From contig JBOIDR010000002.1 in assembly GCA_050740695.1 (NCBI GenBank), positions 3,307-67,306 on the forward strand: a DNA stretch of 64,000 nucleotides, read 5' to 3'. Every line of letters begins with the position of its first letter. The first letter of the stretch is position 1. This document shows, in pieces, positions 1 to 44,840 of this stretch. This stretch comes from Gammaproteobacteria bacterium. Lineage in GTDB: Bacteria; Pseudomonadota; Gammaproteobacteria; JACCXJ01. The position numbers and the translations under genes were made by a program. The notes beneath the pieces were generated by a model, which did not search any database, was not told where the DNA came from, and saw only the letters and a program-made list of their open reading frames with translations.

Positions 1-710
1 AGATAGACGAGGACTATCGCAAACGCAAACAGGTATTCTCCGGCGTACAGGTGTGGGCGATCGGTCAGTTGATGGCGGTGGAGAGGTTCCTGAAATTGCT
101 GGCCAGCCCCAAGTATCGGGGCATCGGCCCGTGGCCGGAGCTGGCGTTCTATGATTGCCACGCCTGCCACCACCCGATGAGCGATCGGCGCTGGCGGCCA
201 CGCGAGCTGACCCGTGCGCTCGGGCCCGGCGTGGTGCGGCTCAACGACGCCAATTTCCTGATCCTGAGCCAGATAGCGGGCCGACTCGCCCCCGATCTCG
301 GTGAGCGCTTCAAGCGTGCCGTCGAAGACCTGCACCAGGCGACGGTAAAGGACCAGGCCTCGGTGCAGGCCGCGGCCGCCCGGCTCGGCGAGGTGACGGC
401 GAACCTGCGCGGGATCCTGGTCCAGCACAGCTTCTCCGCCGCCGACATGAAGGCGATGTTGCAAGTCATGGCGAGCCAGGGGGCCTCCGGAGAGTACAAC
501 GACTACGGGGCTGCGGAACAGGCCGTGATGGCGATGGCGTCGATCAAGGACGTGCTCGAAGAGACCGGGTCGTTGACGGCGGGCGAGAAGGCCGATCTCA
601 CGGCGCTCATGAGCAGGCTCTACGCGGTCCTCGAAGACCCCGATAAGTATCGGCCCGAGCAGCTGTCGGCGGTTCTCCAAACCCTGGCGGGTCGGACCCC
701 GAGGTCGTGA
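1..710 (+). CDS. Partial ORF, 5' end outside window. Hypothetical protein with one CxxCH (heme c-binding) motif, possibly a c-type cytochrome.
   Basis: The reading frame is open from the window start; the listed ORF begins at GTG at position 51 with no upstream stop. It contains DCHACHH (CxxCH). No other recognisable domain. Confidence 0.4.
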   Translation, partial: IDEDYRKRKQVFSGVQVWAIGQLMAVERFLKLLASPKYRGIGPWPELAFYDCHACHHPMSDRRWRPRELTRALGPGVVRLNDANFLILSQIAGRLAPDLGERFKRAVEDLHQATVKDQASVQAAAARLGEVTANLRGILVQHSFSAADMKAMLQVMASQGASGEYNDYGAAEQAVMAMASIKDVLEETGSLTAGEKADLTALMSRLYAVLEDPDKYRPEQLSAVLQTLAGRTPRS

Positions 711-776
711 CGTCTCCATGGCCATCGGGATCCGATCGGGACCTATTAGAAAACCGGCACGGCACCCGTCCCCCGC

Positions 777-3209
777 ATGGCGGCAAAAGCCTATAAGATA
801 GCGGTCATCGGTGCCGGCCCGGCGGGACTGAGCGCGGCTGCGCGGGCCGCCGAGGTCGGGGTTTCGCACGTCCTCCTGGAGGCCGCGCCACACCTCTCCA
901 ATACCATCTATCGCTATCAGAAGGGCAAGCTGGTAATGGCGGAGCCCACCGTCCTGCCCTTGCGCAGCAGCATCGGTTTCGAAGCCGGCTCGCGCGAGCG
1001 CGTGCTGTCGGTGTGGGATGAGGCCAAAGAACGGCTGCGCGTCAATGTGCGGCATGGGGCCGAGGTCGCGGTCGTCGGGGGGGCACCAGGCAACTTCAGC
1101 GTGAGCCTCACCGGCGGCGAGGTCGTGAACGCCGAGTTCGTGGTGCTGGCAACCGGCCTGCAAGGCAACTTGCGCAAGCTCGGTGTGCCCGGGGAAAACC
1201 TGCCCTTCGTGCAATATCAGCTCGACGACCCGGACGAATACGAGAACGAGACCATCGTCGTGGTCGGGGCCGGGGACTCCGCCATCGAGAACGCCGTCGC
1301 GCTGTCCGCGCACAACAAGGTTGTCGTTATCAACCGCCGTGATGATTTCGACAAGGCAAAAGAAGGCAATCGCAACGGAATCGAGCGGGCCATCCAGGAC
1401 GGCGTCATCGAGTGCCTCTATAACACCGCCCCGGTGCGGGTCGAGGCGGCCTCCGGCCGGAACGGGAAACCGGGTGTCCTGGTCGTCAAGACGGCGAGCG
1501 GCGAGGTGGCACTGGACTGCGATCGCGTCATCGCGCGCCTAGGCGCCATGCCGCCCCGGAAGTTCGTCGAGTCCTGCGGGATCGAGTTTCCCAACGATGA
1601 CCCGAACGCCGTGCCGGCCGTCAGCGCCCAATATGAATCCAATGTCCCGGGCCTTTACATCATCGGTGCGCTGGCCGGTTATCCGCTCATCAAGCAGGCC
1701 ATGAACCAAGGCTATGAGGTGGTCGAGTTCATCGACGGCCGGGCCATCGAGCCGGCCGACGAACCGGTGTTGCGCGACAAGTTCCGCGCCGTGGTCGAGA
1801 TCCGCAGCGTGGCCTCGGCCCTGGAAGTCATCAAGAAGAACGTCCCGGTCCTATCGGGCCTGACCACCTTGCAGTTGCGCGAGTTTCTGCTCGACAGCGC
1901 GATCCGGGCGCCGAAACGCGGCGAGGTCCTGTTCGAGCGCAATGATTACTCGGATAGCTTCTTTTCGATCGTGCGCGGCGGGGTCGATATCCATATCGAT
2001 CCGAACGACGCCTCCAAGCGCGTGGCTTTGACGAAAGGCGACTTTTTCGGCGAGATGGGCCTCATCTCCGGACGCCGCCGTAACGCCACGGTGACGGCGG
2101 GTGAGCGTTGCATCTTGATCGAGACACCGCGGCGTTCGATGAACAAGCTGATCAATTCGGTGGCCTCGGTCAAGGGTTTCATCGACGGCACCTTCCTGCG
2201 CCGCGCGATTCAATCGCAGATCGCGCCGGAGCTGCCCGCCGAGGCCCTGCGGGAGGTGGTGGCGAGCGCCCGCATCGAGCGCTTCGATGCCGGCAAGGTG
2301 TTGTTCAAGGAGGGCGATCCCGGGGACAGCCTGCACTTGATCCGCAAGGGCTCGGTCACCGTGGCGCGCGACATCGGGGGGCGGGAACGGGTGCTCTCCT
2401 ATGTGGCGGCCGGCAATTATATTGGAGAGATGGCGCTTTTGACCGACAGCCCCCGTTCCGCGACGGTGCGTGCGGCGATCGAAACGGAGACCATCCGGCT
2501 CGAAGGCGCGGCCTTCAAGGCCCTGCTCTCGCGTTGGCCGGATATCCAGGCCAAGATGCAGAGCAAGGCCCGGGATCTCTTGGCGGGGCAGTCGGTCAAG
2601 GTGCAAGAGACCCCCGAGGGCGCGGGCGATCTCATCTCCTTCCTGGTGAATCAAGGGGTCGGCGAAGCAACGGACGTGTTGCTCATCGACGAGACCCTGT
2701 GTGTGCGGTGCGATCACTGCGAAAAGGCCTGCGCCGAAACCCATGGCGGTACCTCGCGCCTGGACCGCGAGGCCGGACCGACCTTCGCGTACATCCATGT
2801 TCCGACCTCGTGCCGACACTGCGAGCACCCGCACTGCATGAAGGACTGCCCGCCGGATGCCCTGCGCCGGGCACCCAATGGCGAGGTCATTATCCTGGAC
2901 AGTTGCATCGGTTGCGGGAATTGCGAGACCAATTGCCCCTATGGCGTCATCCAGATGGCGGTGAAGGAAGAGCCGAAGCCCGTGAATCTCTTGTCGTGGT
3001 TCTTGTTCGGCAAAGGCAGGGCGCCCGGAGAGGAGATCTCCGCCCATCACGATGCCGGGGCAGCGAAGATAGCCACCAAGTGCGATATGTGTAAGGACCT
3101 GGCCGGGGGTCCCGCCTGCGTGCGGGCCTGTCCCACGGGCGCGGCGATACGCGTGAGCCCGGAACAGTTCCTGACGGTGACGCGCGGCACGACTCTCGAC
3201 AGGTCCTAG
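777..3209 (+). CDS. Multidomain redox protein. It has an N-terminal FAD/NAD(P)-binding pyridine nucleotide-disulfide oxidoreductase domain, two cyclic-nucleotide-binding (cNMP/CAP-like) domains, and C-terminal tandem 4Fe-4S ferredoxin-type dicluster domains.
   Basis: A GxGxxG Rossmann motif (VIGAGPAGLSAA) near the N-terminus, with a second dinucleotide motif VVGAGDSAIE. Two cNMP-binding signatures: FGEMGLISGRRRNATVTA and GEMALLTDSPRSATVRA. Four Cys clusters of CxxCxxCxxxC(P) type: CVRCDHCEKAC, CRHCEHPHCMKDCP, CIGCGNCETNCP, and CDMCKD...CVRACP. Confidence 0.7.
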   Translation: MAAKAYKIAVIGAGPAGLSAAARAAEVGVSHVLLEAAPHLSNTIYRYQKGKLVMAEPTVLPLRSSIGFEAGSRERVLSVWDEAKERLRVNVRHGAEVAVVGGAPGNFSVSLTGGEVVNAEFVVLATGLQGNLRKLGVPGENLPFVQYQLDDPDEYENETIVVVGAGDSAIENAVALSAHNKVVVINRRDDFDKAKEGNRNGIERAIQDGVIECLYNTAPVRVEAASGRNGKPGVLVVKTASGEVALDCDRVIARLGAMPPRKFVESCGIEFPNDDPNAVPAVSAQYESNVPGLYIIGALAGYPLIKQAMNQGYEVVEFIDGRAIEPADEPVLRDKFRAVVEIRSVASALEVIKKNVPVLSGLTTLQLREFLLDSAIRAPKRGEVLFERNDYSDSFFSIVRGGVDIHIDPNDASKRVALTKGDFFGEMGLISGRRRNATVTAGERCILIETPRRSMNKLINSVASVKGFIDGTFLRRAIQSQIAPELPAEALREVVASARIERFDAGKVLFKEGDPGDSLHLIRKGSVTVARDIGGRERVLSYVAAGNYIGEMALLTDSPRSATVRAAIETETIRLEGAAFKALLSRWPDIQAKMQSKARDLLAGQSVKVQETPEGAGDLISFLVNQGVGEATDVLLIDETLCVRCDHCEKACAETHGGTSRLDREAGPTFAYIHVPTSCRHCEHPHCMKDCPPDALRRAPNGEVIILDSCIGCGNCETNCPYGVIQMAVKEEPKPVNLLSWFLFGKGRAPGEEISAHHDAGAAKIATKCDMCKDLAGGPACVRACPTGAAIRVSPEQFLTVTRGTTLDRS

Positions 3210-3229: not shown

Positions 3230-4150
3230 GTGCACGAGTCGTTTCTGGCTTACCGCAAGTTCTTGTATCTCAAGCTCGGCTTGGGGCTCATCGTGCTCTC
3301 GATCCTGGCCTACGCGCTGCACGATCCGCCCCACGGCCCGAACGGGGGGACGTGGCTGGGCTATACCCTGGGCACCATCGGTGCCGGTCTCATTATCTGG
3401 CTGCTCTGGTACGGGGTCCGCAAGCGCCAGTATCACTCGAAGCTCGGCCAGGTGTCCGGGTGGCTGTCGGGCCATGTGTATCTCGGGTCGGCACTCTTGG
3501 TCGTCGCCACCCTGCATGCTGCATTCAAATTTGGCTGGAACGTGCATACCTTGAGTTACGTGCTCATGATCATGGTCATCGTGAGCGGTGCCTACGGGAT
3601 TTTTACCTATGTCCGGTATCCCACGCGCCTGACGGACAACAAGGGCGGCATGGCGATCGACGCCATGCTGAAGGAGATCGGCGATCTGGACGGGCAATGC
3701 CTCCGGATCGCGGCGGAGATGGGTGACAAGGTCCATCAGATGATCCTGCGCTCCATCGAACGCACTTCTTTCGGAAGGACTCCGTGGCGCGATGCGATGG
3801 GCGGTGTGGGCCAGGGGCTCGAGGACCTCGCCCGTGAGATCAAGTCCATCGCCGGTGACGCCCCGACACAGGCGCCGCTGCCGGCCGCCGCCGCGCCGGC
3901 CGCGGCCGGCGAGTCCACGGTGTACTTCGTGGCCGATCAATTCGCCAGTCTCCGCGACCGCGCCCAGGCCGCGCTGGGCCACCGCCTGCTCGACCTCATC
4001 ACCAGCAAAAAGGCCCTGGTGATCCGGGTGCAGCGCGATATCGTCTACCGCAAATTACTCAATTCCTGGCTTTATCTCCACCTGCCCTTGTCTATTGCGC
4101 TGCTCGCGGCCCTGACCGTTCACGTGGTCACGGTCTTCTTCTACTGGTAA
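3230..4150 (+). CDS. Integral membrane protein, hypothetical, with about six predicted TM helices.
   Basis: Several long hydrophobic stretches (LGLGLIVLSILAYAL, IGAGLIIWLLWYGV, ALLVVATL, LMIMVIVSGAYGIF, LPLSIALLAALTVHVV). GTG start 20 nt after the upstream stop. Same strand and tightly packed with its neighbours. Confidence 0.5.
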   Translation: MHESFLAYRKFLYLKLGLGLIVLSILAYALHDPPHGPNGGTWLGYTLGTIGAGLIIWLLWYGVRKRQYHSKLGQVSGWLSGHVYLGSALLVVATLHAAFKFGWNVHTLSYVLMIMVIVSGAYGIFTYVRYPTRLTDNKGGMAIDAMLKEIGDLDGQCLRIAAEMGDKVHQMILRSIERTSFGRTPWRDAMGGVGQGLEDLAREIKSIAGDAPTQAPLPAAAAPAAAGESTVYFVADQFASLRDRAQAALGHRLLDLITSKKALVIRVQRDIVYRKLLNSWLYLHLPLSIALLAALTVHVVTVFFYW

Positions 4151-4159
4151 GCGCCGTCG

Positions 4160-6046
4160 ATGCGTTGCCTGTTACGCGCCGTCGTCCGGAGGAGTCGAGG
4201 TGTCGTCTCCCATCAGGACCGAGGGTTCGAAGGCGAGCATCTCACCATCGGGCGGTCGACGGACCAGGACCTGGAGCTTCCGGACCTGCGCGTGGCCCTG
4301 CACCATGCCACGGTGGTCGCGGCGGGCGCCGGCCGTTTCGTGATCCAGTCGGCGGTGCCCTCCGGGATCCGTCACAACGACGAGCCCGTCCAATCCGCCT
4401 TCCTGGAAGTGGGCGATCAGGTGAGCATCGGCGATCACCGCATCACCGTGCGGCCTCCGGAGGGCGCTCATGAGCTCTGCCTGGAGATCGCGCAGGTGCG
4501 TGCCGATCCCGGCCAGGAGGTCGAGAAGCGCGTCGCGTCGGCCTCGGGCAGCGGCCCGGAAAAGGGCCTGCGCCTGGGCGTGCGCGGCTGGTCCTGGATC
4601 CTCGGCATGGCGATCCTCACGCTGTTCTTCGTCGTGCCGCTCGTCGCTCGCCAGTCGGAGGCGATCCAGGGGTTCCTGCGCGGGGTCATCCCTGGCGTGA
4701 GCGATCACGCGTGGAGCACCGGGGGGCTCACGGAGGGCCATCGGTATTTCGGCGACGACTGCAACAAGTGCCACGAACGGGCCTTCGTCTCGGTACGCGC
4801 GAGCGCCTGCGTCGAATGCCACAAGGACCAGCCGCATCACTTCGATGTCGAGCGTTTCAAGGTCCCGGCCCTCGCCGACAAGCAATGCGCCGCTTGCCAT
4901 AAAGAGCACGGCGGGGCGCCGGCCCTGACCCGGCAGGACGAGGGCCTGTGTCTCGACTGCCACCGCGATATGCAGGAGACGGCGGCGGATTCGAAGCTCC
5001 TGGACATCCGCGGGGGCTTCGCGGAGGACCACCCGGAGTTTCGCGCCACCTTCGTCACCCACACGGACGGAAAAGACCGGTCCGAGCGCATCGAAATCGA
5101 CCGGCGCATTGTCCCGAAGGAGCGCTCCAACCTGTTCTTCCCCCACAAGACCCATCTCGACAAGACCGGGGTCCAGGGGCCCGATGGCAAGGTGGTGCTG
5201 AGCTGCGCGAGCTGCCACGTCCCCGAACCAGGGGGACGGCTTATGGCGCCCATCCGCTTCGAGCAGCATTGCCATCGCTGCCACCAGCTCACCTTTGAGA
5301 TCGACGATCCGAAGCGCGAGGTGCCTCACGGCCATGTCGGTCGGGTGCTCGACGGCCTCGAGGCCTATTACGGCCTGCGTACCCTGGAACGGGCCGATAT
5401 CGATACCGGCGAGCCGGAGGTCCTGTCCCGGCGCCGCCCCGGGCGGCAGGCGGTCCCGCCGGAGCGCTCCGAGGGCCTGGAGAGTGCGGCGCGGCGGGCG
5501 CGGCAAGCGGGCAAGGAGCTTTTCGAGTATCGCGCCTGCGCGACCTGCCACCAGGTCGATGAGAAGGCCCAATCGGTCTTCGGGTGGGACATCGTGCCGG
5601 TGCGCATCGCCCGCACCTGGTACCCCAAGGCCGGCTTCGACCACGGCCGGCACGCCACGGTGGCCTGCGCGCGCTGCCATGGCTTCCGACCCGCCGATTG
5701 CGCCGCCTCTACATCGCCCCCCTCTACATCAAGTAGGGCGGTGGCGGATCCCGAGAAGGGCGCGGCCGATTGCAACAAGGGCGTGGCCGATTCCGAGAAG
5801 AGCGAGGATGTCCTCATCACCGGTATCGCGACCTGCCGGGAGTGCCATGGCGATCCCGGGGCAAAGGATCGGGTTCAGTCGACCTGCATCTTCTGCCACG
5901 ATTTCCATATCTCGCCGAGGTTCGCGATGGATGGCCGGGCGCGGACCAGACCGGGCGACCTAGCCCCCCCTCGGCAGGCGGCGGCGGTGCCGTCGGCCGA
6001 TCTCACGGATCTCCCGGCCGGCCAGGCGCGGATGGGGCAGCAGTGA
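4160..6046 (+). CDS. FHA-domain protein fused, through one TM helix, to a decaheme c-type cytochrome.
   Basis: The N-terminal roughly 110 aa match the FHA fold pattern (GRSTDQDLELPDLRVALHHATVV...DEPV...FLEVGDQVSIGDHRITV). There is one hydrophobic helix (WSWILGMAILTLFFVVPLVA). Ten CxxCH motifs follow: CNKCH, CVECH, CAACH, CLDCH, CASCH, CHRCH, CATCH, CARCH, CRECH, CIFCH. Confidence 0.65.
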   Translation: MRCLLRAVVRRSRGVVSHQDRGFEGEHLTIGRSTDQDLELPDLRVALHHATVVAAGAGRFVIQSAVPSGIRHNDEPVQSAFLEVGDQVSIGDHRITVRPPEGAHELCLEIAQVRADPGQEVEKRVASASGSGPEKGLRLGVRGWSWILGMAILTLFFVVPLVARQSEAIQGFLRGVIPGVSDHAWSTGGLTEGHRYFGDDCNKCHERAFVSVRASACVECHKDQPHHFDVERFKVPALADKQCAACHKEHGGAPALTRQDEGLCLDCHRDMQETAADSKLLDIRGGFAEDHPEFRATFVTHTDGKDRSERIEIDRRIVPKERSNLFFPHKTHLDKTGVQGPDGKVVLSCASCHVPEPGGRLMAPIRFEQHCHRCHQLTFEIDDPKREVPHGHVGRVLDGLEAYYGLRTLERADIDTGEPEVLSRRRPGRQAVPPERSEGLESAARRARQAGKELFEYRACATCHQVDEKAQSVFGWDIVPVRIARTWYPKAGFDHGRHATVACARCHGFRPADCAASTSPPSTSSRAVADPEKGAADCNKGVADSEKSEDVLITGIATCRECHGDPGAKDRVQSTCIFCHDFHISPRFAMDGRARTRPGDLAPPRQAAAVPSADLTDLPAGQARMGQQ

Positions 6047-6218
6047 TGGCGCCGTGTTGGCACGGAACCGGCCTTCCGGGGTATTTTCTGGTGCCGGTGA
6101 ATCTTTCGCGCTGGCGTGCTAACTTAGGGTGGGTGTCAGGGATCGAGCCGGACGGGCTCGAATGGGTTCCCGTATGGCGAATCGGCACTTGTTTCGGGTC
6201 TCGGGTCGAACTCGGTCG

Positions 6219-7013
6219 ATGAAGACTGCGGCGGATCCGCGCCTGTCGCCCGGGCTCAAGTGCCGGATAGACGCGAGTATCGCGACCGACACCGGTTGCC
6301 AGCGCGATCACAATGAGGACCACATCGACTTCTTCGCGGCCGATGACCCCGTGGTACGGAGCAGCAAGGGTGCCCTTGCGGTGGTCGCCGACGGTATGGG
6401 AGGGCACCTCGCGGGCGGTCTGGCGAGCGAACTGGCCGTCCAGGTCGCGCGCCGCACCTACTACCAGGAACCGGGAGAAGGCCGCAAGGCCCTAGAGACC
6501 GCCCTGCAGAGGGCGAACCGGGAGATCTATGAGCTGTCGCTCACGGACGAGGCCTATCATGGCATGGGGACCACGTGCACGGCGCTGGTGTTGACGGGAT
6601 CGCTCGCCCACTGCGCCCACGTCGGCGACAGCCGCCTGTATCTCATCCGCGACGGTCAGATCCGTCTGATGACGGAAGACCACTCCCTGGTTCGGGAGAT
6701 GGTCAAGGCCGGGATCCTGAGCCCCGAGCAGGCGCGCTCTCACCCCAACAGAAACGTGATCTCCAGGGCCTTGGGGGTGCGTCCCAGTGTCGATCTTTTC
6801 TTCTGGCAGGACCCCATGGAGCTCTGCGACGGCGATACCTTCGTCCTGTGTTCCGATGGCCTGCACGACCCCGTGCGCGAAGACGAGATCCTTGGTGTGT
6901 GCGTGGCAGAGGCGTCCGAGGCGGCGTGCCGGAGTCTGGTAGACCTGGCGAAACAGCGCGGCGGCCACGACAACATCAGCGTGGGGGTCTTCCGGGTGAG
7001 AGCCGAGGAGTGA
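6219..7013 (+). CDS. PP2C-family (PPM) Ser/Thr protein phosphatase.
   Basis: PPM motifs are present: DTGCQRDHNEDH, VVADGMGGH, GTTCTALV, LCSDGL, GGHDNISV. The start was chosen at MKTAADP; the ORF can also open at position 6129. Confidence 0.75.
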   Translation: MKTAADPRLSPGLKCRIDASIATDTGCQRDHNEDHIDFFAADDPVVRSSKGALAVVADGMGGHLAGGLASELAVQVARRTYYQEPGEGRKALETALQRANREIYELSLTDEAYHGMGTTCTALVLTGSLAHCAHVGDSRLYLIRDGQIRLMTEDHSLVREMVKAGILSPEQARSHPNRNVISRALGVRPSVDLFFWQDPMELCDGDTFVLCSDGLHDPVREDEILGVCVAEASEAACRSLVDLAKQRGGHDNISVGVFRVRAEE

Positions 7014-7048: not shown

Positions 7049-10000
7049 ATGATCAACGAAGTGATCGCCAACTGCTACCAGATCGTCGAGAAGATCGGCG
7101 AGGGTGGGATGGGGGAGGTGTTCCGGGGTGTGGACATCAACCTCGATCGCGATGTCGCCATCAAGGTCATGCGTACCGAGCTCGCCCGCCGGCCCGAGAT
7201 CCTCCAGCGTTTCCGCAAGGAAGCGGTCGTCCTAGCCAAGCTCAACCATTCCAATATCGCGACCCTCTACAACTTCATCCATGACGGTAACAACTATTAC
7301 ATGGTCATGGAGTTCGCGCCGGGTCAGACCCTCGACGTCCTCGTCGCGGATTGCGTCGGGGGGCTGCCGTGGCGATACGCGCTGGAGCTGTTCATGGATG
7401 CGCTCCGGGCCATCGACCACGCCCATAAGCAGGGCATCATCCACCGTGACATCAAGCCGGCCAACATGATGGTCAGCAAGCGCGATACCCTGAAGGTTCT
7501 GGACTTCGGGATCGCGCGCGTCCTGGGAGAATCCGGATTCACCAAGGCGGGCATCGTGGTCGGAACGACCAAGTACATGTCCCCCGAACAGATCCTCGGC
7601 CGCAGCATCGATACGCGTTCGGATATCTACGCGCTCGGGATCGTGCTCTACAAGATGCTCACCGGGCATGTGCCCTTCGAGGGCCTGGGTGAGTTCGAGC
7701 TCATGAAGGCGCAGGTCGAGGACCGCGCCCTGCCGGTACGCCAGATCATTCCGGATCTGCCCGAAGCGGTTGACGAGGCCATAATGCGGTCCCTGGAGAA
7801 GGCGCCGGAAGACCGATTTCAGCGGGCCTCCGAATTCATTGCCGCATTGGTGCCGATACTGCGCGACGATGTTGCCGACTGGGAGTCGCACCGCAGAGAC
7901 TTGCGCGACCAGGAGTCGGGCCCGCGTGCGCCTCGGCAGCGGGGCGGGCAGAAACGCCCGGTGGTCATCGACGGCAACCTGGCGCGCAAGCAGGCCGAGA
8001 TGCCCACTTCGAGCAGCCGCAGCGGGCTCATGGACGATGCCTATCAGCCACCTCCCCGTCAGGCCTCCCCCCGTCAGATGCCGACCCGTCAGTCCACCCC
8101 GGCCCCGAGGCTCGAGGTGGTTCGCACGCCGGTGCCGGCGAGCGCGTCCCAGGTGCCGACGCAGGCTTTGGACACGCGGGTCGCAGCGGAGATCACACCT
8201 CCGCTGCGACCACGCGTCCCGGTGACGGCCGAGGCCGGGGCCACCACGGTCGATGAGCCGTCCATCTTTGGGACCCGGGTCGGGACGAAGGTCATGGGGA
8301 CCGGGAAACCCGTCGCACCGCCCACACCCTCGTGGCGTGCCCGGATCGGTGAGGGGTTGCGGCCGGTCTTGGGATGGCTGTCGCGGCTCGGATGGCGGCG
8401 CGTCGCGGGTGCCGCGCTGGGACTCGCCGTACTGGCGGGCGTATCGCTGGGGGTCCGTGAGCTGATGCGACCTCCCGATCCTGAGGAGATCGCGCTGTGG
8501 CTCGCACAGGCGAAGCAGGCGCTGGCGGCGGGGAAGGTTGGGCCCGGAGACACGGCCGTGTCTCTGGCACAGGATGTCTTGAAATGGGTACCGGACCACG
8601 GCGAAGCGAGAGACGTCGTGCTCGCGGCGGTCGCCCGTCTCGTGAGCGCCGGCCAGTCGGCGCTCCAACAGGGCAAACTGAGCGACGCGAAAGCGCGGCT
8701 TGCCGAGGCGGAGACTTTGGTCAGGGACCCCGCGCTGGAGAACCCTAAGCTGGACAAGCGCAGTGTGGCGGCGCTCGCGGGCGGTATCGCCGCCGAGGAG
8801 TCGCGGCGCACCGCGATCGAAAGAGCAGAACGGGAGAAAGCGGAACGGGAACGCCGTATCGGCGAGCTGATCGCGGCCTCGCGGGCGGCGCTTGCGTCGG
8901 AGAAGTTCGCGGAGGCCGCGGCGCGAGCCCAGGAGGTCTTGGGCCTGGTGCCGGACCAGGCCGAGGCGCGCCAGATCCTCGACGATGCGCTCCAAGGGGC
9001 GCTCAAGGGCATGGAAGAGGCGCTCGCCCGCGGCGATCTTGCAGCGGTCGGCGCCCGTGAAGCGGAGGCGCGTGCCCTGGTGCAGCAGTACGGTCTACCC
9101 GAGGCGAAGCTCAACGACTTGGCCGCACGGCGCGCTAGAGAAGCGCAGCGACAGGCCGAGGAAGAGGAACGCCTGGCGGGGCAGAAGCGCGCCGTGGAAG
9201 AGCGGACGGCGCGTGTCCGGGGGCTGCTGGACAAGGCGCAGGCGGCCGCCGAGGCGGGCCGCTGGACGGTCCCGCCCGAGGACAGCGCCGTCGGGTATGC
9301 GGGGGCGGTCCTGGGCCTCGAACCCAAGAGCACCGAGGCCTTGCGGGTGATCGGCGATGCCGTCGATGCCGTGGTCGATGAGGCCGATGGTGCGCTCGGG
9401 GCCGGTGATATGGCAACGGCCAAGGCCCGGCGTGACGCGGCCGCGAAACTGGCCTCCACCTACCAGGTGCCGAGCCAGAGCATCGCGAAGCTGTCCGAGC
9501 GGATCACCGAGGCCGAACGTCTAGCCCGCGAGGCAGAGGACGAGGCCGCGCGCCTTGCCCGCGAGACGCAAGAGAAGAAAGCGGCGCTGGTGGCCCGCGA
9601 AGCGAAAATCGAGGATCTGATCGAAAAGGCCACTCGGGCCATCGCCCAGGACCGCTTGACGGCGCCCGCGAACGACAACGCCATGAAACACGTACGCGAT
9701 CTGGTCAGCCTGGATCCGGGGAACGTAGAGGCGCAGGGCCTTGCTGCCGGGGTGCGCGACCGTTACATTGCACTGGCCGACAAGGCCGTGGCCGATGCCC
9801 ACTTCACAAAGGCTCGTGATCTCGAGCGCCAGGCGGGCGAGATCGCCTCCGAGTTTCGCCTGAGTGCCGACCCGATCCGTGATCTCGCGGCCCGGATCGC
9901 GGCCGCCGAGGACAGCAATGCGAGCGCCGTGATCGAGTCGCGCGAAAAAGCCGAGCGCGACAGGGCGGCAGAAGAAAGGCTGACGCAGCAGAAGGCTGAG

Positions 10001-10540
10001 GAGGCTCGGGCGGAACGCGACAGGCTGGAGCGAGAAAAGCTCGCCCGGCAGAATGCGGAGCAGGGGGAGGCCCGCCGCCGCGAGCAGCAGCTCGCGGATC
10101 TACGCAAGAAGGCGAGGTCGGCGCTGGCCGGCAACCGGCTGACCCGTCCCCGGGGTAACAACGCCGTGGAGCTTGCCGCCCAGATGCTTACCCTGGATAA
10201 AGGCCGCAACGAAGGCCTTCAGATCCTCCAAGAGGTGGTAGGCCGCTATGTGGCGATGGGTGAGCTGGCCGTCGCCGGCGAGGATCTCGCGGTGGCGGAC
10301 GATCATTATCGGGCCGCCGAGCGCGTCGTGAAGGATTACCGGTTGCCGGACGCGGAACTTCGTCGGCTGGATCGGCGTCTTACGGCCAAACGACAAGAGA
10401 TCGCCGAAGTGGAACGGCGTGCGCGTGATAAGCGGACGCCGATCGTCTCGTCGCCGCCCGCGGAGGTTTCGCCCCCGGCGGATCCGCCGAAGAAAGCGGA
10501 CGGGGGGAGGTCGAGAGTATTCGTGCCCCCTTCGTTCTAG
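7049..10540 (+). CDS. Hanks-type Ser/Thr protein kinase. It has one TM segment and a very long C-terminal extracytoplasmic Ala/Glu/Arg-rich coiled-coil region, with roughly 38-aa repeats, that ends in FVPPSF.
   Basis: Kinase subdomains: GxGxxG-like EKIGEGGMGEV, VAIK, HRDIKPANM, DFGIA, SPEQ. A hydrophobic segment (AALGLAVLAGVSLGV) at about aa 450. Repeats of the RLTxPxxNNA...L.L.PG..EA..L...V..RY type occur at least three times. Confidence 0.8.
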   Translation: MINEVIANCYQIVEKIGEGGMGEVFRGVDINLDRDVAIKVMRTELARRPEILQRFRKEAVVLAKLNHSNIATLYNFIHDGNNYYMVMEFAPGQTLDVLVADCVGGLPWRYALELFMDALRAIDHAHKQGIIHRDIKPANMMVSKRDTLKVLDFGIARVLGESGFTKAGIVVGTTKYMSPEQILGRSIDTRSDIYALGIVLYKMLTGHVPFEGLGEFELMKAQVEDRALPVRQIIPDLPEAVDEAIMRSLEKAPEDRFQRASEFIAALVPILRDDVADWESHRRDLRDQESGPRAPRQRGGQKRPVVIDGNLARKQAEMPTSSSRSGLMDDAYQPPPRQASPRQMPTRQSTPAPRLEVVRTPVPASASQVPTQALDTRVAAEITPPLRPRVPVTAEAGATTVDEPSIFGTRVGTKVMGTGKPVAPPTPSWRARIGEGLRPVLGWLSRLGWRRVAGAALGLAVLAGVSLGVRELMRPPDPEEIALWLAQAKQALAAGKVGPGDTAVSLAQDVLKWVPDHGEARDVVLAAVARLVSAGQSALQQGKLSDAKARLAEAETLVRDPALENPKLDKRSVAALAGGIAAEESRRTAIERAEREKAERERRIGELIAASRAALASEKFAEAAARAQEVLGLVPDQAEARQILDDALQGALKGMEEALARGDLAAVGAREAEARALVQQYGLPEAKLNDLAARRAREAQRQAEEEERLAGQKRAVEERTARVRGLLDKAQAAAEAGRWTVPPEDSAVGYAGAVLGLEPKSTEALRVIGDAVDAVVDEADGALGAGDMATAKARRDAAAKLASTYQVPSQSIAKLSERITEAERLAREAEDEAARLARETQEKKAALVAREAKIEDLIEKATRAIAQDRLTAPANDNAMKHVRDLVSLDPGNVEAQGLAAGVRDRYIALADKAVADAHFTKARDLERQAGEIASEFRLSADPIRDLAARIAAAEDSNASAVIESREKAERDRAAEERLTQQKAEEARAERDRLEREKLARQNAEQGEARRREQQLADLRKKARSALAGNRLTRPRGNNAVELAAQMLTLDKGRNEGLQILQEVVGRYVAMGELAVAGEDLAVADDHYRAAERVVKDYRLPDAELRRLDRRLTAKRQEIAEVERRARDKRTPIVSSPPAEVSPPADPPKKADGGRSRVFVPPSF

Positions 10541-10620: not shown

Positions 10621-11457
10621 ATGAGGGAATTTCCAATGTGTTTCAATAGATTCAGCTTGTTTCGAGGTCTCTGCATGACCATTATGTCAATTAATGTCCG
10701 GCGCGGAATGCTCGCGTGGGTATTCGTGCTCGCGGCTTACCCGGGGCTCTCCGCGGGCGCCGAACAGAAGCGCCCGGCTCCATCCGCTCGCATTGCAGCG
10801 ATTCTCGTCCAGGCGGAGCGCGCCCTGGCGGAGGATCGGCTCACCCTGCCCTCGGGCCATAATGCCGTCTCCTATGCCCAAAAGGTGCTGGACCTCGCGC
10901 CCGGCCACCCCGCAGCCCAAGGGATCCTTCGCGCCGTTGTCACACGCTACGGGCTCATCGCCGGTGCCGCTCTGGACCGGGCCGAGGCGCTGAGGCGTCA
11001 GGAACTAGCCAGGGCGCAGGCGTATCGATCGCGAGGGGAGGGCGTGGCGCATCGGTTCAATCTTAGCACGGTGCCCTTGAGTGCCGTCGCGGAGCGCATG
11101 GATGGCGTGAAGGCTCGTCCCCATGGGACGAGCGTGGTGGATAATTCAACGATCATTATCGGGCAACGCCAGCCCCCGGCGGACCGAGTGCTCGACCGAC
11201 TGGTCGGCAAGTACCTATATGAGAGTGAGATCGCACTGGAGGGTGGCCGGGTGCACGATGCCCGGCGCTACTGGGAGGTCGCCGCTCAGATCGCGATGGA
11301 TCACCGGGTTTCGAATCCGGGCCTCGACGGGCTCGAGCGCCGTGTCGCCGCGGCCGAGCAGGAACGGGACGAGGGCCGGGTCCGGGCGCGTGAGGACGCC
11401 CGCCTTTCTGCGCAGGGCCGGTTGCTCAAGGCCGTATTCATTCCGCCCAGCTTTTAG
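10621..11457 (+). CDS. Secreted or periplasmic repeat-domain protein. It shares the repeat module and the C-terminal FIPPSF motif with the upstream kinase. The start may be internal (MSINV...).
   Basis: Signal-peptide-like MLAWVFVLAAYPGLSAGA. RLTLPSGHNAVSYAQKVLDLAPGHPAAQGILRAVVTRYG matches the kinase repeats. The protein ends ...VFIPPSF, and the kinase ends ...VFVPPSF. Confidence 0.5.
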   Translation: MREFPMCFNRFSLFRGLCMTIMSINVRRGMLAWVFVLAAYPGLSAGAEQKRPAPSARIAAILVQAERALAEDRLTLPSGHNAVSYAQKVLDLAPGHPAAQGILRAVVTRYGLIAGAALDRAEALRRQELARAQAYRSRGEGVAHRFNLSTVPLSAVAERMDGVKARPHGTSVVDNSTIIIGQRQPPADRVLDRLVGKYLYESEIALEGGRVHDARRYWEVAAQIAMDHRVSNPGLDGLERRVAAAEQERDEGRVRAREDARLSAQGRLLKAVFIPPSF

Positions 11458-12510
<1,053 letters not shown>

Positions 12511-18972: not shown

Positions 18973-19401
18973 GAACAACCTCCTTTGAAAGAGCCGACCC
19001 TTGTTTGTTGTGACGCCCAACGTGGCTGGTAAGCGGCGTACCGTAGGCATGTCCGCTTGACCTGCGGGTGTACGCCCAACATGGGCCGCACTTATGGGGC
19101 GAAAGTCCCCGGTAGGAGTACCGGTAATGTCCTCTTGTAGGACAAAGGTAACTACGAGGCGAAAACAAGGGTAATCCCGCGAGAGGTGGTCTGAAGGAAG
19201 CCCGAGCGCAAAAGTGCGAGCCGACGACAAAATCGCCGGAAGCGATTTTGAAGCGCTCTGTCGAGGGTCCGCATTGTCACGGTGTTTCTCGTTGCAAGAG
19301 CGCGACAGTATGCCGTGTACTGACTCCAGAGTTGGAAGTCGTAGAACGACGGCTTACTGCACTCATAGGGTGAATCAGGCGCGGCCGGGTGGTGGGTTTT
19401 A

Positions 19402-20295
19402 CTAGGCACGCGCGCGGCGCAGCCTGCTTCTCGCGGGCAGCTCGCTGTCGTAAATGCGCTTGACGCCGTCGCCGAGCGAGGTCTCGATGTCGCGGAGGTT
19501 GCGCACCAGGCGCTCGAAACCTCCGATCTCGACCGAGGCCGCCTGGTCGGTACCCCACGTGGCCCGATCGAGGGTGATATGGCGCTCGACGAAGGTGGCG
19601 CCCAGGGCCACCGCCGCGCCGCTCGGGGCGAGGCCGGTCTCGTGGCCGGAATACCCGATCGGGGTCTCGGGATAGGCGGCCTTCAGGGTCGGGATCATCT
19701 TGAGGTTCAGCTCTTCGAGCTTGCACGGGTAGGTAGAGGTCGAGTGCGCGATGAACAGTCCGGCCCGCCCCCCGGGACCGTGGAGACCGACGGTCTCGAC
19801 GGCCGTGCGGATCTCTTGCACCGTGGACATCCCGGTCGAGATCATGACCGGCCGCCCGGTCGCGCGTGCCTTGCGCAGTAAACGCAGATCCGTCAGTGAG
19901 GCGCTGGGGAGCTTGTAGAAAGGCGGCTCGAAACGCGCCATGAAGCCGATCGAGTCCTCGTCCCAACACGAGGCCGTCCAGTCGATCCCGAGATCGCAGC
20001 AGTAGCGGTCGATCTCCAGGTAATCCTCGACCCCGAGTTCAACGCGAAACCGGTAGTCGATGTAGCTCATCCGACCCCAGGGAGTGTCTCGCTCGACGCC
20101 CCACTGGTCCTTGGGCACGCATACCTCCGGATTGCGCTTCTGAAATTTCGCCATGTCGGCCCCGGCGCGCTTGGCGCCGGCGATGAGCGCCTTGGCGTGG
20201 GCGAGCGAGCCGTTATGGTTGATGCCGATCTCCGCGATAATGTAGACTGGCTCGCCGTCGCCTATTGCGCGTGCCCCGATATCCACGATTGCCAT
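19402..20295 (-). CDS. N-acetylneuraminate synthase (NeuB/SpsE) family protein. It has the TIM-barrel domain only, with no C-terminal SAF domain.
   Basis: MAIVDIGARAIGDGEPVYIIAEIGINHNGSLAHAKALI and ...GYSGHETG are NeuB-family motifs. Start at the internal Met. Confidence 0.7.
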   Translation of the reverse strand: MAIVDIGARAIGDGEPVYIIAEIGINHNGSLAHAKALIAGAKRAGADMAKFQKRNPEVCVPKDQWGVERDTPWGRMSYIDYRFRVELGVEDYLEIDRYCCDLGIDWTASCWDEDSIGFMARFEPPFYKLPSASLTDLRLLRKARATGRPVMISTGMSTVQEIRTAVETVGLHGPGGRAGLFIAHSTSTYPCKLEELNLKMIPTLKAAYPETPIGYSGHETGLAPSGAAVALGATFVERHITLDRATWGTDQAASVEIGGFERLVRNLRDIETSLGDGVKRIYDSELPARSRLRRARA

Positions 20296-20544
20296 GGTCC
20301 CCCTTTCTCGTCTCTTGCCTGTCGGACGCAAGCTATTCTTACAGCGGTCGCCAATCGCCCATTCTCGATCCCTAGCCCTCTCGCGGAGGCAAATGGGGCC
20401 TAAGGAGGCGATTCGTGGCCGTGCCTATCGTATGCCTTCAAATACGCCATGCCTGTGGCGCGGTTGGTGGGCGATGGCGCAGACAACGCCTCTAACCCCC
20501 AAACACAGGGATGCCCAGCCACCGCGGATGTTCGCACAGTCCTT

Positions 20545-43057: not shown

Positions 43058-44008
43058 ATGCCCCCCTCTCCGACACCCCTGCGCATCGTCACGCGCCGAA
43101 GCCCCCTCGCCCTGCGACAGGCAGAGATCGTCCGGGCCGAGCTCATGCGCCGCCACGCCGGGCTCGACGTCGAGCTGATCCCGGTGTGGACCGAGGCGGA
43201 TCGCCGGCTGGATACCCCGCTCGCGCGCCTCGGGGGCAAGGGGCTGTTCATCAAGGAGCTGGAACAATGCCTCGTCGAGGGGCGCGCGGACCTCGCGGTC
43301 CACTCCTTGAAAGACGTTACCGTCGAGATGCCGGCTGGGCTTTGCGTACCGGCCGTCCTGGCGCGTGAAGACCCCCACGATGCCTTGGTCTCGCAGCGCT
43401 ACACGAGCCTCGACGCCCTGCCGAACGGGGCTCGCGTGGGGACCTCGAGCCTGCGGCGGCGTGCCCAGCTCTGTGCCCTTCGTCCCGATCTCGAGGTCCT
43501 GGAGGTGCGCGGCAACGTCGGCACCCGCCTCGCACGCCTCGAGCGCGGCGACTTCGACGGCATCGTCCTTGCTGTCGCCGGACTCAAGCGCCTCGCCCTC
43601 TCGGCCCGCATCGCTGCACCGCTCGATACCGAGATCATGTTGCCGGCCATTGGCCAGGGCGCGCTCGCGGTCCAGTGCCGCGCCGGGGACGAGCATGTCC
43701 TCGACCTCGTCGAAGCCCTCGACGACCCCGATACCCATGCCTGTACCGATGCGGAGCGGTCCTTCAACCGCCGCCTCGGCGGGGACTGCCACGTGCCCAT
43801 CGCGGGCCATGCGGAGTTGCTCGGCACGGAGCTATACCTTCGCGGGTTGGTGGCCCGACCGGATGGCCGCGAGGTGATCCGCGGCAGCGTACGCGGCCCG
43901 ACGACAGAAGCGCAGGCGCTCGGCATCGCCCTGGCCGAAGCGCTGATCGGGAGGGGTGCCGCTACGCTCCTCGCCGCGCTCGGCGTGGTCGTCTGCGATG
44001 CGGGCTAG
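43058..44008 (+). CDS. hemC: Hydroxymethylbilane synthase (porphobilinogen deaminase).
   Basis: LRIVTRRSPLALRQAEIV...GGKGLFIKELE...AVHSLKDV. Confidence 0.85.
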   Translation: MPPSPTPLRIVTRRSPLALRQAEIVRAELMRRHAGLDVELIPVWTEADRRLDTPLARLGGKGLFIKELEQCLVEGRADLAVHSLKDVTVEMPAGLCVPAVLAREDPHDALVSQRYTSLDALPNGARVGTSSLRRRAQLCALRPDLEVLEVRGNVGTRLARLERGDFDGIVLAVAGLKRLALSARIAAPLDTEIMLPAIGQGALAVQCRAGDEHVLDLVEALDDPDTHACTDAERSFNRRLGGDCHVPIAGHAELLGTELYLRGLVARPDGREVIRGSVRGPTTEAQALGIALAEALIGRGAATLLAALGVVVCDAG

Positions 44009-44840
44009 TGCCGGTGGTCCTCTGCACGGGCTCGGGGTCCTGGTAACCCGACCGGCCCACCAGGCCCAGGGGCTTCAACGGCTCATCGAAGCGGCCGGGG
44101 GCCGTGCGTTCCTGTTCCCCCTGCTCGATATCAAACCCTTGAACGATCCGAGCCGGGCGCTGTCCTGGATCCGGGACCTCGCCCGTTACGATATCGCGGT
44201 ATTCGTGAGCGCCAACGCGGTGGAGCACGGCCTGGGGTTAATGGCTCTGCACGGCGGGACGCTGGGGTCGATCGGGATCATCGCCGTGGGCAGGGCGACC
44301 GCCCAACGCCTAGAAGAGCGAGGCATCGCGGGCGCCGCTGTCCCGAGCGTTGCGAGCAGTGAAGGCGTGCTGCGCCTCGATACGCTCGGGGCGGACCGGA
44401 TCGCCGGTAAACGGATCCTCATCTTTCGCGGGACGGGCGGCCGGGAACTCCTGGCCGAGGGCCTGCGCCGCCGCGGGGCGCTGGTGGACTATGCCGAGGT
44501 CTACGAGCGCGCCGTGACCGAGGTCGATCCCAAGCCCTTGCTTGGCCTCTGGGATCGGGGTGAAATAGGGGCCGTGATTGTGAGCAGTTCCGCGGCCCTG
44601 GAGCATCTCCTAGCGATGGGCGCCGCGATGGGGCGCGAGCGCCTGCTCGATGTAACGCTCGTGGTCCTGAGCGAAAGGCTCGCTGCCCGCGCCCGGCAGC
44701 TCGGCTTCCGGCGCCCGCCGCTCGTGGCGACCGAGGCCGGAGACGCGGGCCTGTTCTCGGCATTGACGGCGTGGCACACGCGGCAAGAGCCCCTGGACTT
44801 TATCAAAGGCGTGGGGGCCACCGGGGTAGAGGACCCATGA
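43998..44840 (+). CDS. hemD: Uroporphyrinogen-III synthase.
   Basis: LHGLGVLVTRPAHQAQGLQRLIEAAGG resembles HemD. It overlaps the hemC 3' end. The start was chosen at MRASAGG. Confidence 0.75.
   Translation: MRASAGGPLHGLGVLVTRPAHQAQGLQRLIEAAGGRAFLFPLLDIKPLNDPSRALSWIRDLARYDIAVFVSANAVEHGLGLMALHGGTLGSIGIIAVGRATAQRLEERGIAGAAVPSVASSEGVLRLDTLGADRIAGKRILIFRGTGGRELLAEGLRRRGALVDYAEVYERAVTEVDPKPLLGLWDRGEIGAVIVSSSAALEHLLAMGAAMGRERLLDVTLVVLSERLAARARQLGFRRPPLVATEAGDAGLFSALTAWHTRQEPLDFIKGVGATGVEDP

Follow-up and report, generated by a model that had tools for sequence, protein, structure and literature searches.

We analysed a 64,000-nucleotide stretch of contig JBOIDR010000002.1 (assembly GCA_050740695.1, a gammaproteobacterial lineage known from a metagenome-assembled genome, MAG), hereafter called the window. 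The gene under study, g3, encodes an FHA domain, one transmembrane (TM) helix and a decahaem cytochrome c domain in a single polypeptide. An original prediction, made from the sequence alone, had described this fusion as very unusual, with a cytoplasmic N-terminal FHA domain of about 110 aa, a single TM helix and a periplasmic part carrying ten CxxCH motifs; it had further proposed that the cytochrome reads phosphothreonine and may be the effector of a neighbouring kinase/phosphatase pair. Our analysis shows that g3 is a member of a widespread, recently noticed and uncharacterised family, and that its conserved partners are the two genes upstream of it, g1 and g2, not the kinase and phosphatase genes. 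The features of the cytochrome locus are the following.

4160..6046 (+): g3, FHA, TM helix and decahaem cytochrome c, 628 aa, PtdG/'NHC' family
4160..4495 (+): FHA-fold domain of g3, aa 1-112, predicted cytoplasmic; G31-R32 and H49 kept, A46 in place of Ser, S68 in place of Asn
4580..4654 (+): single TM helix of g3, aa ~141-165, located by hydrophobicity; N-in/C-out according to the charge bias of the family
4727..5914 (+): predicted periplasmic decahaem domain of g3, aa ~190-585, ten CxxCH and ten distal His, invariant
3230..4150 (+): g2, 306 aa, predicted 5-TM inner-membrane protein with a cytoplasmic helical insert at aa ~131-275, PtdF-like
777..3209 (+): g1, 810 aa, predicted cytoplasmic, PtdE-like; assigned from Pfam, NCBIfam and PDB sequence matches
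3..710 (+): periplasmic tetrahaem cytochrome c of ~450 aa (Cytochrome_C554-like, PtdD-like), truncated by the window start to its C-terminal half, which holds one CxxCH

The decahaem cytochrome family and its upstream partners

The g3 gene is one open reading frame (ORF) with an ATG start, 9 nt past the stop codon of the preceding gene, and the choice of start codon is backed by M1 and R2, which are conserved in the homologue alignment. The ten CxxCH motifs stand at aa 201, 217, 243, 264, 349, 371, 460, 503, 559, and 576. In 20,000 shuffles of the protein, such motifs numbered 0.048 on average and at most 2; within the 64-kb window, g3 is the only ORF with two or more. All ten motifs are invariant in 80 homologues, together with H194, H227, H250, H291, H329, H332, H390, H495, H498, and H583; these ten further His exactly match the need of ten bis-His haems. 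Several c3/c7-type cytochrome models of Pfam matched the C-terminal part of g3, and the cytochrome domain alone had no sequence relative among the solved structures (PDB sequences).

The only hydrophobic segment of g3 lies at aa ~141-165. The topology was inferred by the positive-inside rule across 80 family members, taking 15 residues on each side of the helix. The mean number of Lys plus Arg was 4.3 on the N-terminal side versus 1.5 on the C-terminal side, with an N-side excess in 75 of the 80 homologues and an N-side deficit in none. This bias supports a topology in which the FHA domain would be cytoplasmic and the haem domain periplasmic, where it would be accessible to the Ccm/Ccs maturation machinery. 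One homologue of 711 aa (P0091) has the order FHA, TM, cytochrome, second TM, second FHA, an arrangement that is sensible only with the haem domain outside and the FHA domain at either end in the cytoplasm. The architecture of the original prediction is thereby borne out in each part: Pfam recognises an FHA domain in the N-terminal region (aa 1-112), one hydrophobic helix follows, ten CxxCH were counted, and the charge bias places the two domains on opposite sides of the membrane.

Two side observations concern the g3 gene itself. A clade-specific insert of ~38 aa, rich in Ser, Pro and Ala, separates haem motifs 8 and 9 (window 5681-5794, aa ~508-545); it contains two extra Cys (C514 and C538) and was modelled with a low predicted local distance difference test score (pLDDT). 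P0002 (74% identical) has a shorter version, P0045 has a longer insert at this site that is unrelated, and the other 27 aligned homologues have none. A terminator-like hairpin 3' of g3 (6063-6078) was not used, as such sites were no more frequent than expected by chance (9 sites versus 5.9 +/- 2.8 in shuffles).

The fusion proved to be widespread. A protein search covering 5.8 billion protein clusters returned 98 relatives of g3, about 80 of them full-length (550-600 aa). A genome scan, with one genome per GTDB species and an alignment of 11 closer sequences as query, found a g3 relative in at least 477 species. The best 80 of these genomes were mostly from Gammaproteobacteria, comprising many Lysobacterales (among them Dokdonella, Rudaea, and the cultured Tahibacter aquaticus DSM 21667, which has the cluster as locus L049), a USC-gamma MAG, Methylococcales, Thiomargarita, and Ca. 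Venteria; Alphaproteobacteria (SAR116, Rhodospirillaceae) and Betaproteobacteria were also among them. Gallionellaceae and UBA11136 are further named hosts within the at least 477 species. The claim of a very unusual architecture holds in part: a 2026 preprint also regards the combination as unusual (10.64898/2026.01.22.701106), yet it is not unique. That the fusion is an artefact, in which mis-assembly or a mis-called ORF joined an FHA gene to a cytochrome gene, is hardly conceivable, and nothing was found that speaks for it. The same full-length architecture recurs in the ~80 independent protein clusters and in the species genomes, which come from many assemblies; the N-terminus and the linker are conserved among homologues; and the GC content at third codon positions (GC3) of g3, 0.84, is typical for the genes of the window.

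The neighbours of g3 were compared by tblastn of the window's neighbouring genes against 80 loci, combined with clustering of all locus ORFs. As a result, g2 was found directly upstream of g3 in 71 of the 75 loci with at least 1 kb of upstream sequence; where this sequence extended to at least 3.5 kb (63 loci), g1 was found upstream of g2 in 54. This adjacency spans Gamma-, Alpha-, and Betaproteobacteria. A ~450-aa tetrahaem cytochrome gene often lies 5' of g1. Its counterpart at the window start (ORF 3..710) is 96% identical by tblastn to aa 216-450 of the full-length gene in locus L002, and the full-length homologues carry 4 CxxCH and a Pfam Cytochrome_C554 match. The complete order of the window, g0-g1-g2-g3, recurred in L001-L003, L005, L042, L081, L082, and L088, and the core gene order was also conserved in three alphaproteobacterial loci (L072, L075, and L079).

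The g1 protein combines three kinds of module. Residues 1-320 form a TrxR/YpdA-type domain for FAD and NAD(P)H with two Rossmann motifs, the second followed by N-R-R; no redox-active CxxC was found in this flavin domain. Since the protein opens with the Rossmann FAD motif, it has no signal peptide. Two domains that bind cyclic nucleoside monophosphates (cNMP), with intact phosphate-binding cassettes, follow at aa ~343-600, and aa 642-785 hold four [4Fe-4S] motifs, with 16 Cys in four ferredoxin motifs. The matches among solved structures were YpdA/Bdr, thioredoxin reductase and TrxR-type ferredoxin-NADP reductase, the regulatory subunits of PKA, and four-cluster ferredoxins of the HycB type.

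The g2 protein is probably a dihaem cytochrome b, as judged from its conserved His. Five His (H82, H96, H106, H284, and H298) are invariant in 62 homologues. H82 and H96 lie on TM3 and H284 and H298 on TM5, giving two H-x13-H pairs whose members are 14 positions apart. In the g2 model (pLDDT 78), the helices span aa 12-30, 42-66, 75-97, 105-138, and 244-305, with the helical cytoplasmic insert in between. The R64-K65-R66 loop before TM3 and the cytoplasmic insert before TM5 imply that TM3 and TM5 run parallel, from inside to outside, in which case H82 and H284 would lie towards the cytoplasm and H96 and H298 towards the periplasm. Mitochondrial cytochrome b of the bc1 complex has His with an i/i+14 spacing, and that in NOX/FRE ferric-reductase domains is similar; by this analogy, the predicted arrangement in g2 is the classical one for two stacked bis-His haems b. 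A weak match to the Pfam cytochrome b561 family (PF01292) was obtained for 49 of the 62 homologues (best E 1.2e-6), and one of the 62 touched Ferric_reduct (E 0.017). The g2 family profile had no sequence match in the PDB. As a side observation, T230 of g2 is nearly invariant (59/62) within E-S-T-[MVI]-x-F-[MVL]-A (aa 228-235, window 3917-3940), directly after a hypervariable, disordered cytoplasmic loop, and may be a docking or phosphorylation site.

In many lineages, three or four extra genes follow g3 (L005, L008, L042, L072, L075, L079, and L082). They encode an HbpS-like lipoprotein of ~650 aa, a barrel-like protein of ~600-750 aa with a weak Alginate_exp match, and a decahaem protein of ~1,280 aa with LVIVD repeats; the alphaproteobacterial loci L072, L075, and L079 add a protein of ~150 aa. 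This extension suggests an outer-membrane or surface branch. No homologue of the HbpS-like, barrel-like or LVIVD-decahaem gene was found anywhere in the window. The USC-gamma loci L001 and L003, the nearest relatives outside the window's clade, also lack the extension genes, so the window's clade carries the inner-membrane core only.

The FHA domain and the adjacent kinase and phosphatase

The FHA assignment agrees across several searches. Pfam FHA (PF00498) matched aa 29-91 of g3 with 25.9 bits (curated cut-off 20.7 bits; E 1.4e-5), and about half of the homologue clusters carry a precomputed PF00498 annotation. A phmmer search of aa 1-147 against solved structures returned the FHA domains of GarA, Rv1747, EmbR, OdhI, and FhaA (E from 1.6e-5). 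The 11-stranded beta-sandwich of the FHA fold was predicted for the N-terminus with high confidence, and the structural matches include YscD, EssC, and KIF13B.

The phosphothreonine pocket gave a different result. In the HMMER alignment to GarA, A46 takes the place of the phosphate-binding Ser95 and L47 that of Arg96, and V-P-S-G-I is aligned with S-L-N-G-T, so that the canonical set (Gly-Arg, Ser-x-x-His, Asn-Gly) is incomplete in g3. We counted the pocket residues in 80 family members, using GarA/Rv1747/EmbR as the reference alignment. The Gly (G31) is kept in 76/76, the Arg (R32) in 71/76, and the structural His (H49) in 70/80. The Ser position of the S-R-x-H motif, which contacts the phosphate, is Ala in 57/80 and Ser or Thr in only 4/80; Leu comes next in 71/80, and only 4/80 have the Asn of the N-G loop. 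In the homologue P0091, the C-terminal FHA domain has the full canonical GR..SKRH..SRNGT and the N-terminal one has the degenerate pocket of the family, which shows that the alignment approach does detect canonical sites. Loss of the Ser abolishes binding in FHA domains that have been studied, such as Rad53 FHA1 and GarA. To judge from these alignments, the conserved Ala-Leu pair indicates selection for something other than phosphothreonine, and the g3 FHA domain is probably not a canonical reader of this mark; the retained Arg leaves phosphothreonine reading as a minority possibility. On this point, the original prediction was not upheld.

Downstream of g3, we identified three further genes.

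6129..7013 (+): PP2C (Stp1-type) Ser/Thr phosphatase, NCBIfam 237 bits versus a 230-bit cut-off; link to g3 doubtful
7049..10540 (+): Hanks-type Ser/Thr kinase (STK), 1163 aa, TM helix at aa ~451-473; link to g3 doubtful
10621-11457: ORF of 278 aa, paralogue of the kinase repeat region, with a hydrophobic N-terminal segment suggesting export

The g3, PP2C, and STK genes lie on one strand with gaps of 83 and 36 nt. For the forward synteny, we compared the PP2C and kinase domains with six-frame translations of the 80 loci by phmmer. Apart from one kinase 7.5 kb upstream in L042, they were found only in L004, the closest relative; of the 65 other loci that extend at least 3 kb past g3, none has PP2C/STK downstream of it (within 10 kb). 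For the reverse synteny, we compared the neighbourhoods of full-length kinase orthologues. The order of the window, cytochrome-PP2C-STK-paralogue-hemB-ntrCB, was repeated in L088 (kinase 88% identical) and L083 (65%). The orthologues in L089 (84%) and L086 (79%) belong to PP2C-STK pairs in unrelated neighbourhoods with no cytochrome cluster, and more distant orthologues (47% and 35%) are flanked by neither PP2C nor a cytochrome cluster. PP2C/STK after g3 is thus confined to a narrow clade (the window, L004, L083, and L088), and the occurrence of PP2C-STK at 79-84% identity without the cytochrome marks it as an independent two-gene unit. The kinase link is weak, and the idea that the cytochrome is the effector of the adjacent kinase/phosphatase pair was the weakest part of the original prediction.

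Several side observations concern the kinase block. The part of the kinase after its TM helix, ~680 aa and extracytoplasmic, consists of roughly five or six degenerate repeats of ~110 aa each (DRLT-P-x-x-NA…L-x-L-x-PG), for which no Pfam match was found. The ORF at 10621-11457 matched these repeats (BLASTP E 6e-12) and shares the C-terminal motif F[VI]PPSF. The pair of STK and paralogue was kept in L083, L084, L087, and L088, with PP2C preceding it in L083, L084, and L088, not in L087. L081 and L084 come from one MAG (GCA_975321835.1), in which the cytochrome cluster (L081) stands at one contig end, with CopG/SLATT genes separating it from purL; another contig opens with short purL-like fragments, followed by the PP2C-STK block (L084). 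This junction may be a rearrangement or strain-variation breakpoint, and an insertion was considered as one scenario. In L089, a VWA-FHA protein (184-1854, reverse strand; Pfam FHA and Yop-YscD_cpl) is encoded ~5 kb upstream of PP2C-STK on the opposite strand, and it may be a more conventional FHA partner of this kinase family.

The window is otherwise ordinary chromosome, with gyrA, murJ, ntrBC-like, and PhoH/PIN genes. Haem biosynthesis genes lie nearby: hemB (11521-12510) directly follows the kinase block, and a cluster containing HemX spans 43058-46447. Rfam matched a group II intron domain D1-D4-3 (RF02001) at 19173-19376 (+) with 36.4 bits (gathering score 32), just upstream of a NeuB-family gene on the opposite strand (19402-20331). 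No tRNA gene was found in the 64 kb.

Relation to published and characterised systems

Proteins that match this family in architecture and gene order have been described under two names. The ptdABCDEFG operon of marine Alphaproteobacteria from oxygen-deficient zones encodes a tetrahaem cytochrome (PtdD), a protein with cNMP-binding and 4Fe-4S domains (PtdE), a 'ferric reductase-like' membrane protein (PtdF), and a decahaem cytochrome (PtdG) (10.1101/2023.11.21.568154). That preprint calls the function 'completely unknown' and PtdG simply periplasmic, with no mention of an FHA domain; its supplements hold no PtdG, PtdF or FHA information (10.1101/2023.11.21.568154). The window shares the order tetrahaem, cNMP/4Fe-4S protein, membrane protein, decahaem with PtdD-E-F-G, as does the core in L072, L075, and L079. 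Unlike the full operon, the window has no PtdA/PtdB-type porin and pentahaem genes, and neither an outer-membrane porin nor further multihaem cytochromes were found in it. The label given to PtdF provides independent support for g2 as a haem b protein.

The second name, 'NHC', was given to a nonahaem membrane cytochrome of Ferrigenium straubiae whose FHA domain is cytosolic and whose gene neighbours encode a 5-TM protein and a [4Fe-4S] protein (10.64898/2026.01.22.701106). Its authors reported FHA with multihaem cytochromes as previously unreported, found no redox motif in the 5-TM protein, and speculated on a CymA-like link that passes electrons from an Fe(II) oxidase to quinone, the function being unknown (10.64898/2026.01.22.701106). 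The g3 protein resembles NHC in its cytosolic FHA domain, one TM helix, periplasmic multihaem domain, and 5-TM and [4Fe-4S] neighbours. It differs in having ten haems versus the nine reported; g2 has the H-x13-H pairs of four invariant His, unlike the neighbour of NHC, and the present host is a MAG lineage that is not a known iron oxidiser. Additionally, a cytochrome cluster of Gallionellaceae (cluster 403, 'Forkhead-associated protein', 10 CXXCH, 27 genomes) was listed uncommented by Hoover et al. (PMC9900912). The occurrence of 'FHA' with 'decaheme' in a rice-root Gallionellaceae paper was discarded as irrelevant, since it concerns the FhaB/FhaC haemagglutinin. The fit of g3 to the PtdG/NHC family is one of architecture and synteny.

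Among characterised systems, CbcL of Geobacter sulfurreducens has a HydC/FdnI-type dihaem b part fused to a nine-haem c domain. The module encoded by g1, g2, and g3 would resemble it as an inner-membrane gateway in which dihaem b in the membrane is paired with an extensive multihaem c part in the periplasm. Unlike in CbcL, the b and c parts are separate polypeptides, the c subunit brings a TM helix of its own and a cytoplasmic FHA domain, and a FAD/cNMP/Fe-S protein would join on the cytoplasmic side; no sequence similarity to CbcL was detected. The NOX/FRE/STEAP proteins, transmembrane electron exporters of the ferric-reductase type, differ from the module, in which the dehydrogenase would be a TrxR-type flavoprotein on its own polypeptide, equipped with cNMP domains and a wire of four Fe-S clusters, and the acceptor a covalently anchored decahaem wire. 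In sulfate reducers, TmcABCD and HmcABCDEF unite periplasmic multihaem c, membrane cytochrome b and cytoplasmic Fe-S protein in one operon. The module would have the same three subunit types in one operon, although it lacks a CCG/HdrD-type subunit, shows no detected sequence relationship, occurs in aerobic or microaerophilic hosts, and carries FHA and cNMP modules. A NapC/NirT/CymA-type identity was rejected for g3 (no Cytochrom_NNT match, ten haems, and a 140-aa cytoplasmic region before the TM helix).

For the FHA domain, two precedents are relevant. FHA, PP2C, and STK form signalling triads in M. tuberculosis (FhaA/PstP/PknB) and in type VI secretion (Fha1/PppA/PpkA), and FHA-like domains act independently of phosphorylation in YscD of type III secretion, EssC of type VII secretion, and KIF13B. 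In the window's clade, an FHA gene followed by PP2C and STK resembles the triads; unlike in the triads, the kinase adjacency is not conserved across the g3 family. The g3 FHA domain lacks the canonical Ser and Asn of FhaA/GarA and, unlike many YscD-type domains, keeps the Arg.

A proposed gated wire across the inner membrane

We put the chance at about even that g3 is the c-type cytochrome subunit of a conserved inner-membrane redox module, g1-g2-g3, that works as a gated transmembrane wire. From the domain content, the invariant cofactor motifs, the N-in/C-out signal, and the three-gene synteny, we infer one complex and one continuous path for electrons, linking cytoplasm and periplasm. Electrons would enter from NAD(P)H at the FAD of g1 and pass through its four [4Fe-4S] clusters. 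In g2, they would move from a cytoplasmic-side haem b (H82/H284) to a periplasmic-side haem b (H96/H298), and they would leave through the ten bis-His haems c of g3 to the four haems of the tetrahaem cytochrome or to other periplasmic partners. The most likely direction is outward, exporting cytoplasmic reducing power, because electrons flowing inward to NAD(P)+ would have to go against the redox potential as well as the membrane potential in the aerobic hosts, which oxidise methane, sulfur, and iron, and because no ion-coupling subunit is encoded in the cluster. Outward flow would lose energy, and the need to control it tightly would account for the presence of two regulatory modules: the tandem cNMP domains in g1 and the FHA domain in g3. 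A flexible linker of ~30 residues would tether the FHA domain at the cytoplasmic face, where g1 must dock on g2. We regard this domain as probably a phospho-independent docking or gating domain of non-canonical specificity, and we take the view that it is not a dedicated reader of the adjacent kinase.

Several points weigh against this proposal. That the three proteins form a complex, that g2 binds haem b, and which way the electrons run are deductions from sequence, not biochemistry, and the window's own g2 has no significant Pfam match. The g3 gene stands alone in four Thiotrichales/Thiomargarita loci (L018, L055, L059, and L068), and g1 is ~10 kb distant in three betaproteobacterial loci. 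The g2 protein could be a quinone-reactive cytochrome b (HydC/FdnI-like), in which case its main partner would be the quinone pool and not g1. The phosphate-binding Arg, kept in most FHA domains of the family, still permits phospho-dependent binding, and the FHA-PP2C-STK order in the window's clade mimics the classical signalling triads.

The alternatives turn on the same evidence. A quinone-coupled module, in which g2 and g3 act like a split CbcL or a CymA/NapC-type system between the quinone pool and periplasmic cytochromes with g1 as an accessory or regulatory redox sensor, is a rival we take seriously while judging it rather unlikely. The weak relationship of g2 to PF01292, whose characterised members (HydC, FdnI, CybB) react with quinones, speaks for it, as do the loci that have g3 without g1 and the single TM helix with a periplasmic multihaem domain, on which the Ferrigenium authors based their comparison with CymA/NrfH. 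It has to contend with the missing NapC/NirT (Cytochrom_NNT) match, the position of every g3 haem site outside the membrane, and the frequent co-location of g1, which contributes FAD, a site for NAD(P)H, and the kind of four-cluster ferredoxin wire known to dock on membrane anchors. The same subunits could also be read in the opposite direction, as an inward conduit of the Tmc/Hmc type that takes electrons from periplasmic donors through the cytochromes c and g2 to the Fe-S/flavin protein and on to NAD(P)+ or another cytoplasmic acceptor. The subunit logic is that of Desulfovibrio TmcABCD/Hmc, and the family is present in iron-, sulfur-, and methane-oxidisers; however, inward electrons would move against the membrane potential, reduction of NAD(P)+ from Fe(II), sulfur compounds or cytochrome c is strongly uphill, and the cluster encodes no ion-translocating coupling subunit, which makes this direction quite improbable.

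It is unlikely that the FHA domain is a genuine phosphothreonine reader and the cytochrome an effector of PP2C/STK, with periplasmic electron transfer being switched through phosphorylation of the module itself or a partner. The confidently predicted fold, the Gly-Arg and the structural His fit such a switch, the g3-PP2C-STK order is kept in L004, L088, and L083, and T230 of g2, in a T-x-x-F motif by a disordered cytoplasmic loop, would be a candidate target. Against these stand the replacement of Ser by Ala followed by Leu and the rarity of the Asn in a family where the method did recognise the canonical second domain of P0091. The absence of PP2C/STK from all the other loci and the PP2C-STK orthologues in contexts without a cytochrome add to this, and the FHA domain is older and far more widespread than the kinase adjacency. 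A narrower version applies to the window's clade only: the module would have come under Hanks-type control, STK and PP2C acting on a cytoplasmic Thr (T230 of g2 or a site in g1) at which the Arg-retaining FHA domain docks and switches an NAD(P)H-to-periplasm valve. We consider this a long shot. If true, it would be the first case of Ser/Thr phospho-signalling, on top of cyclic-nucleotide control, directly gating a multihaem transmembrane wire.

To our knowledge, the crossing of the inner membrane by electrons to or from periplasmic multihaem wires is known for few systems (CymA, CbcL/ImcH, Tmc/Hmc). Beyond the two preprints, our analysis adds the 5-TM partner as a probable dihaem cytochrome b, an FHA domain without the canonical phosphothreonine contacts, the conserved three-gene wire as proposed here, and a kinase adjacency restricted to one clade. 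If the gated wire is correct, the family would provide a quinone-independent, doubly regulated route from the cytoplasmic NAD(P)H pool to periplasmic cytochromes, in many lineages probably surface-exposed. Such a route would bear on extracellular electron transfer, on iron and nitrogen cycling in oxygen-deficient waters, and on periplasmic redox homeostasis.

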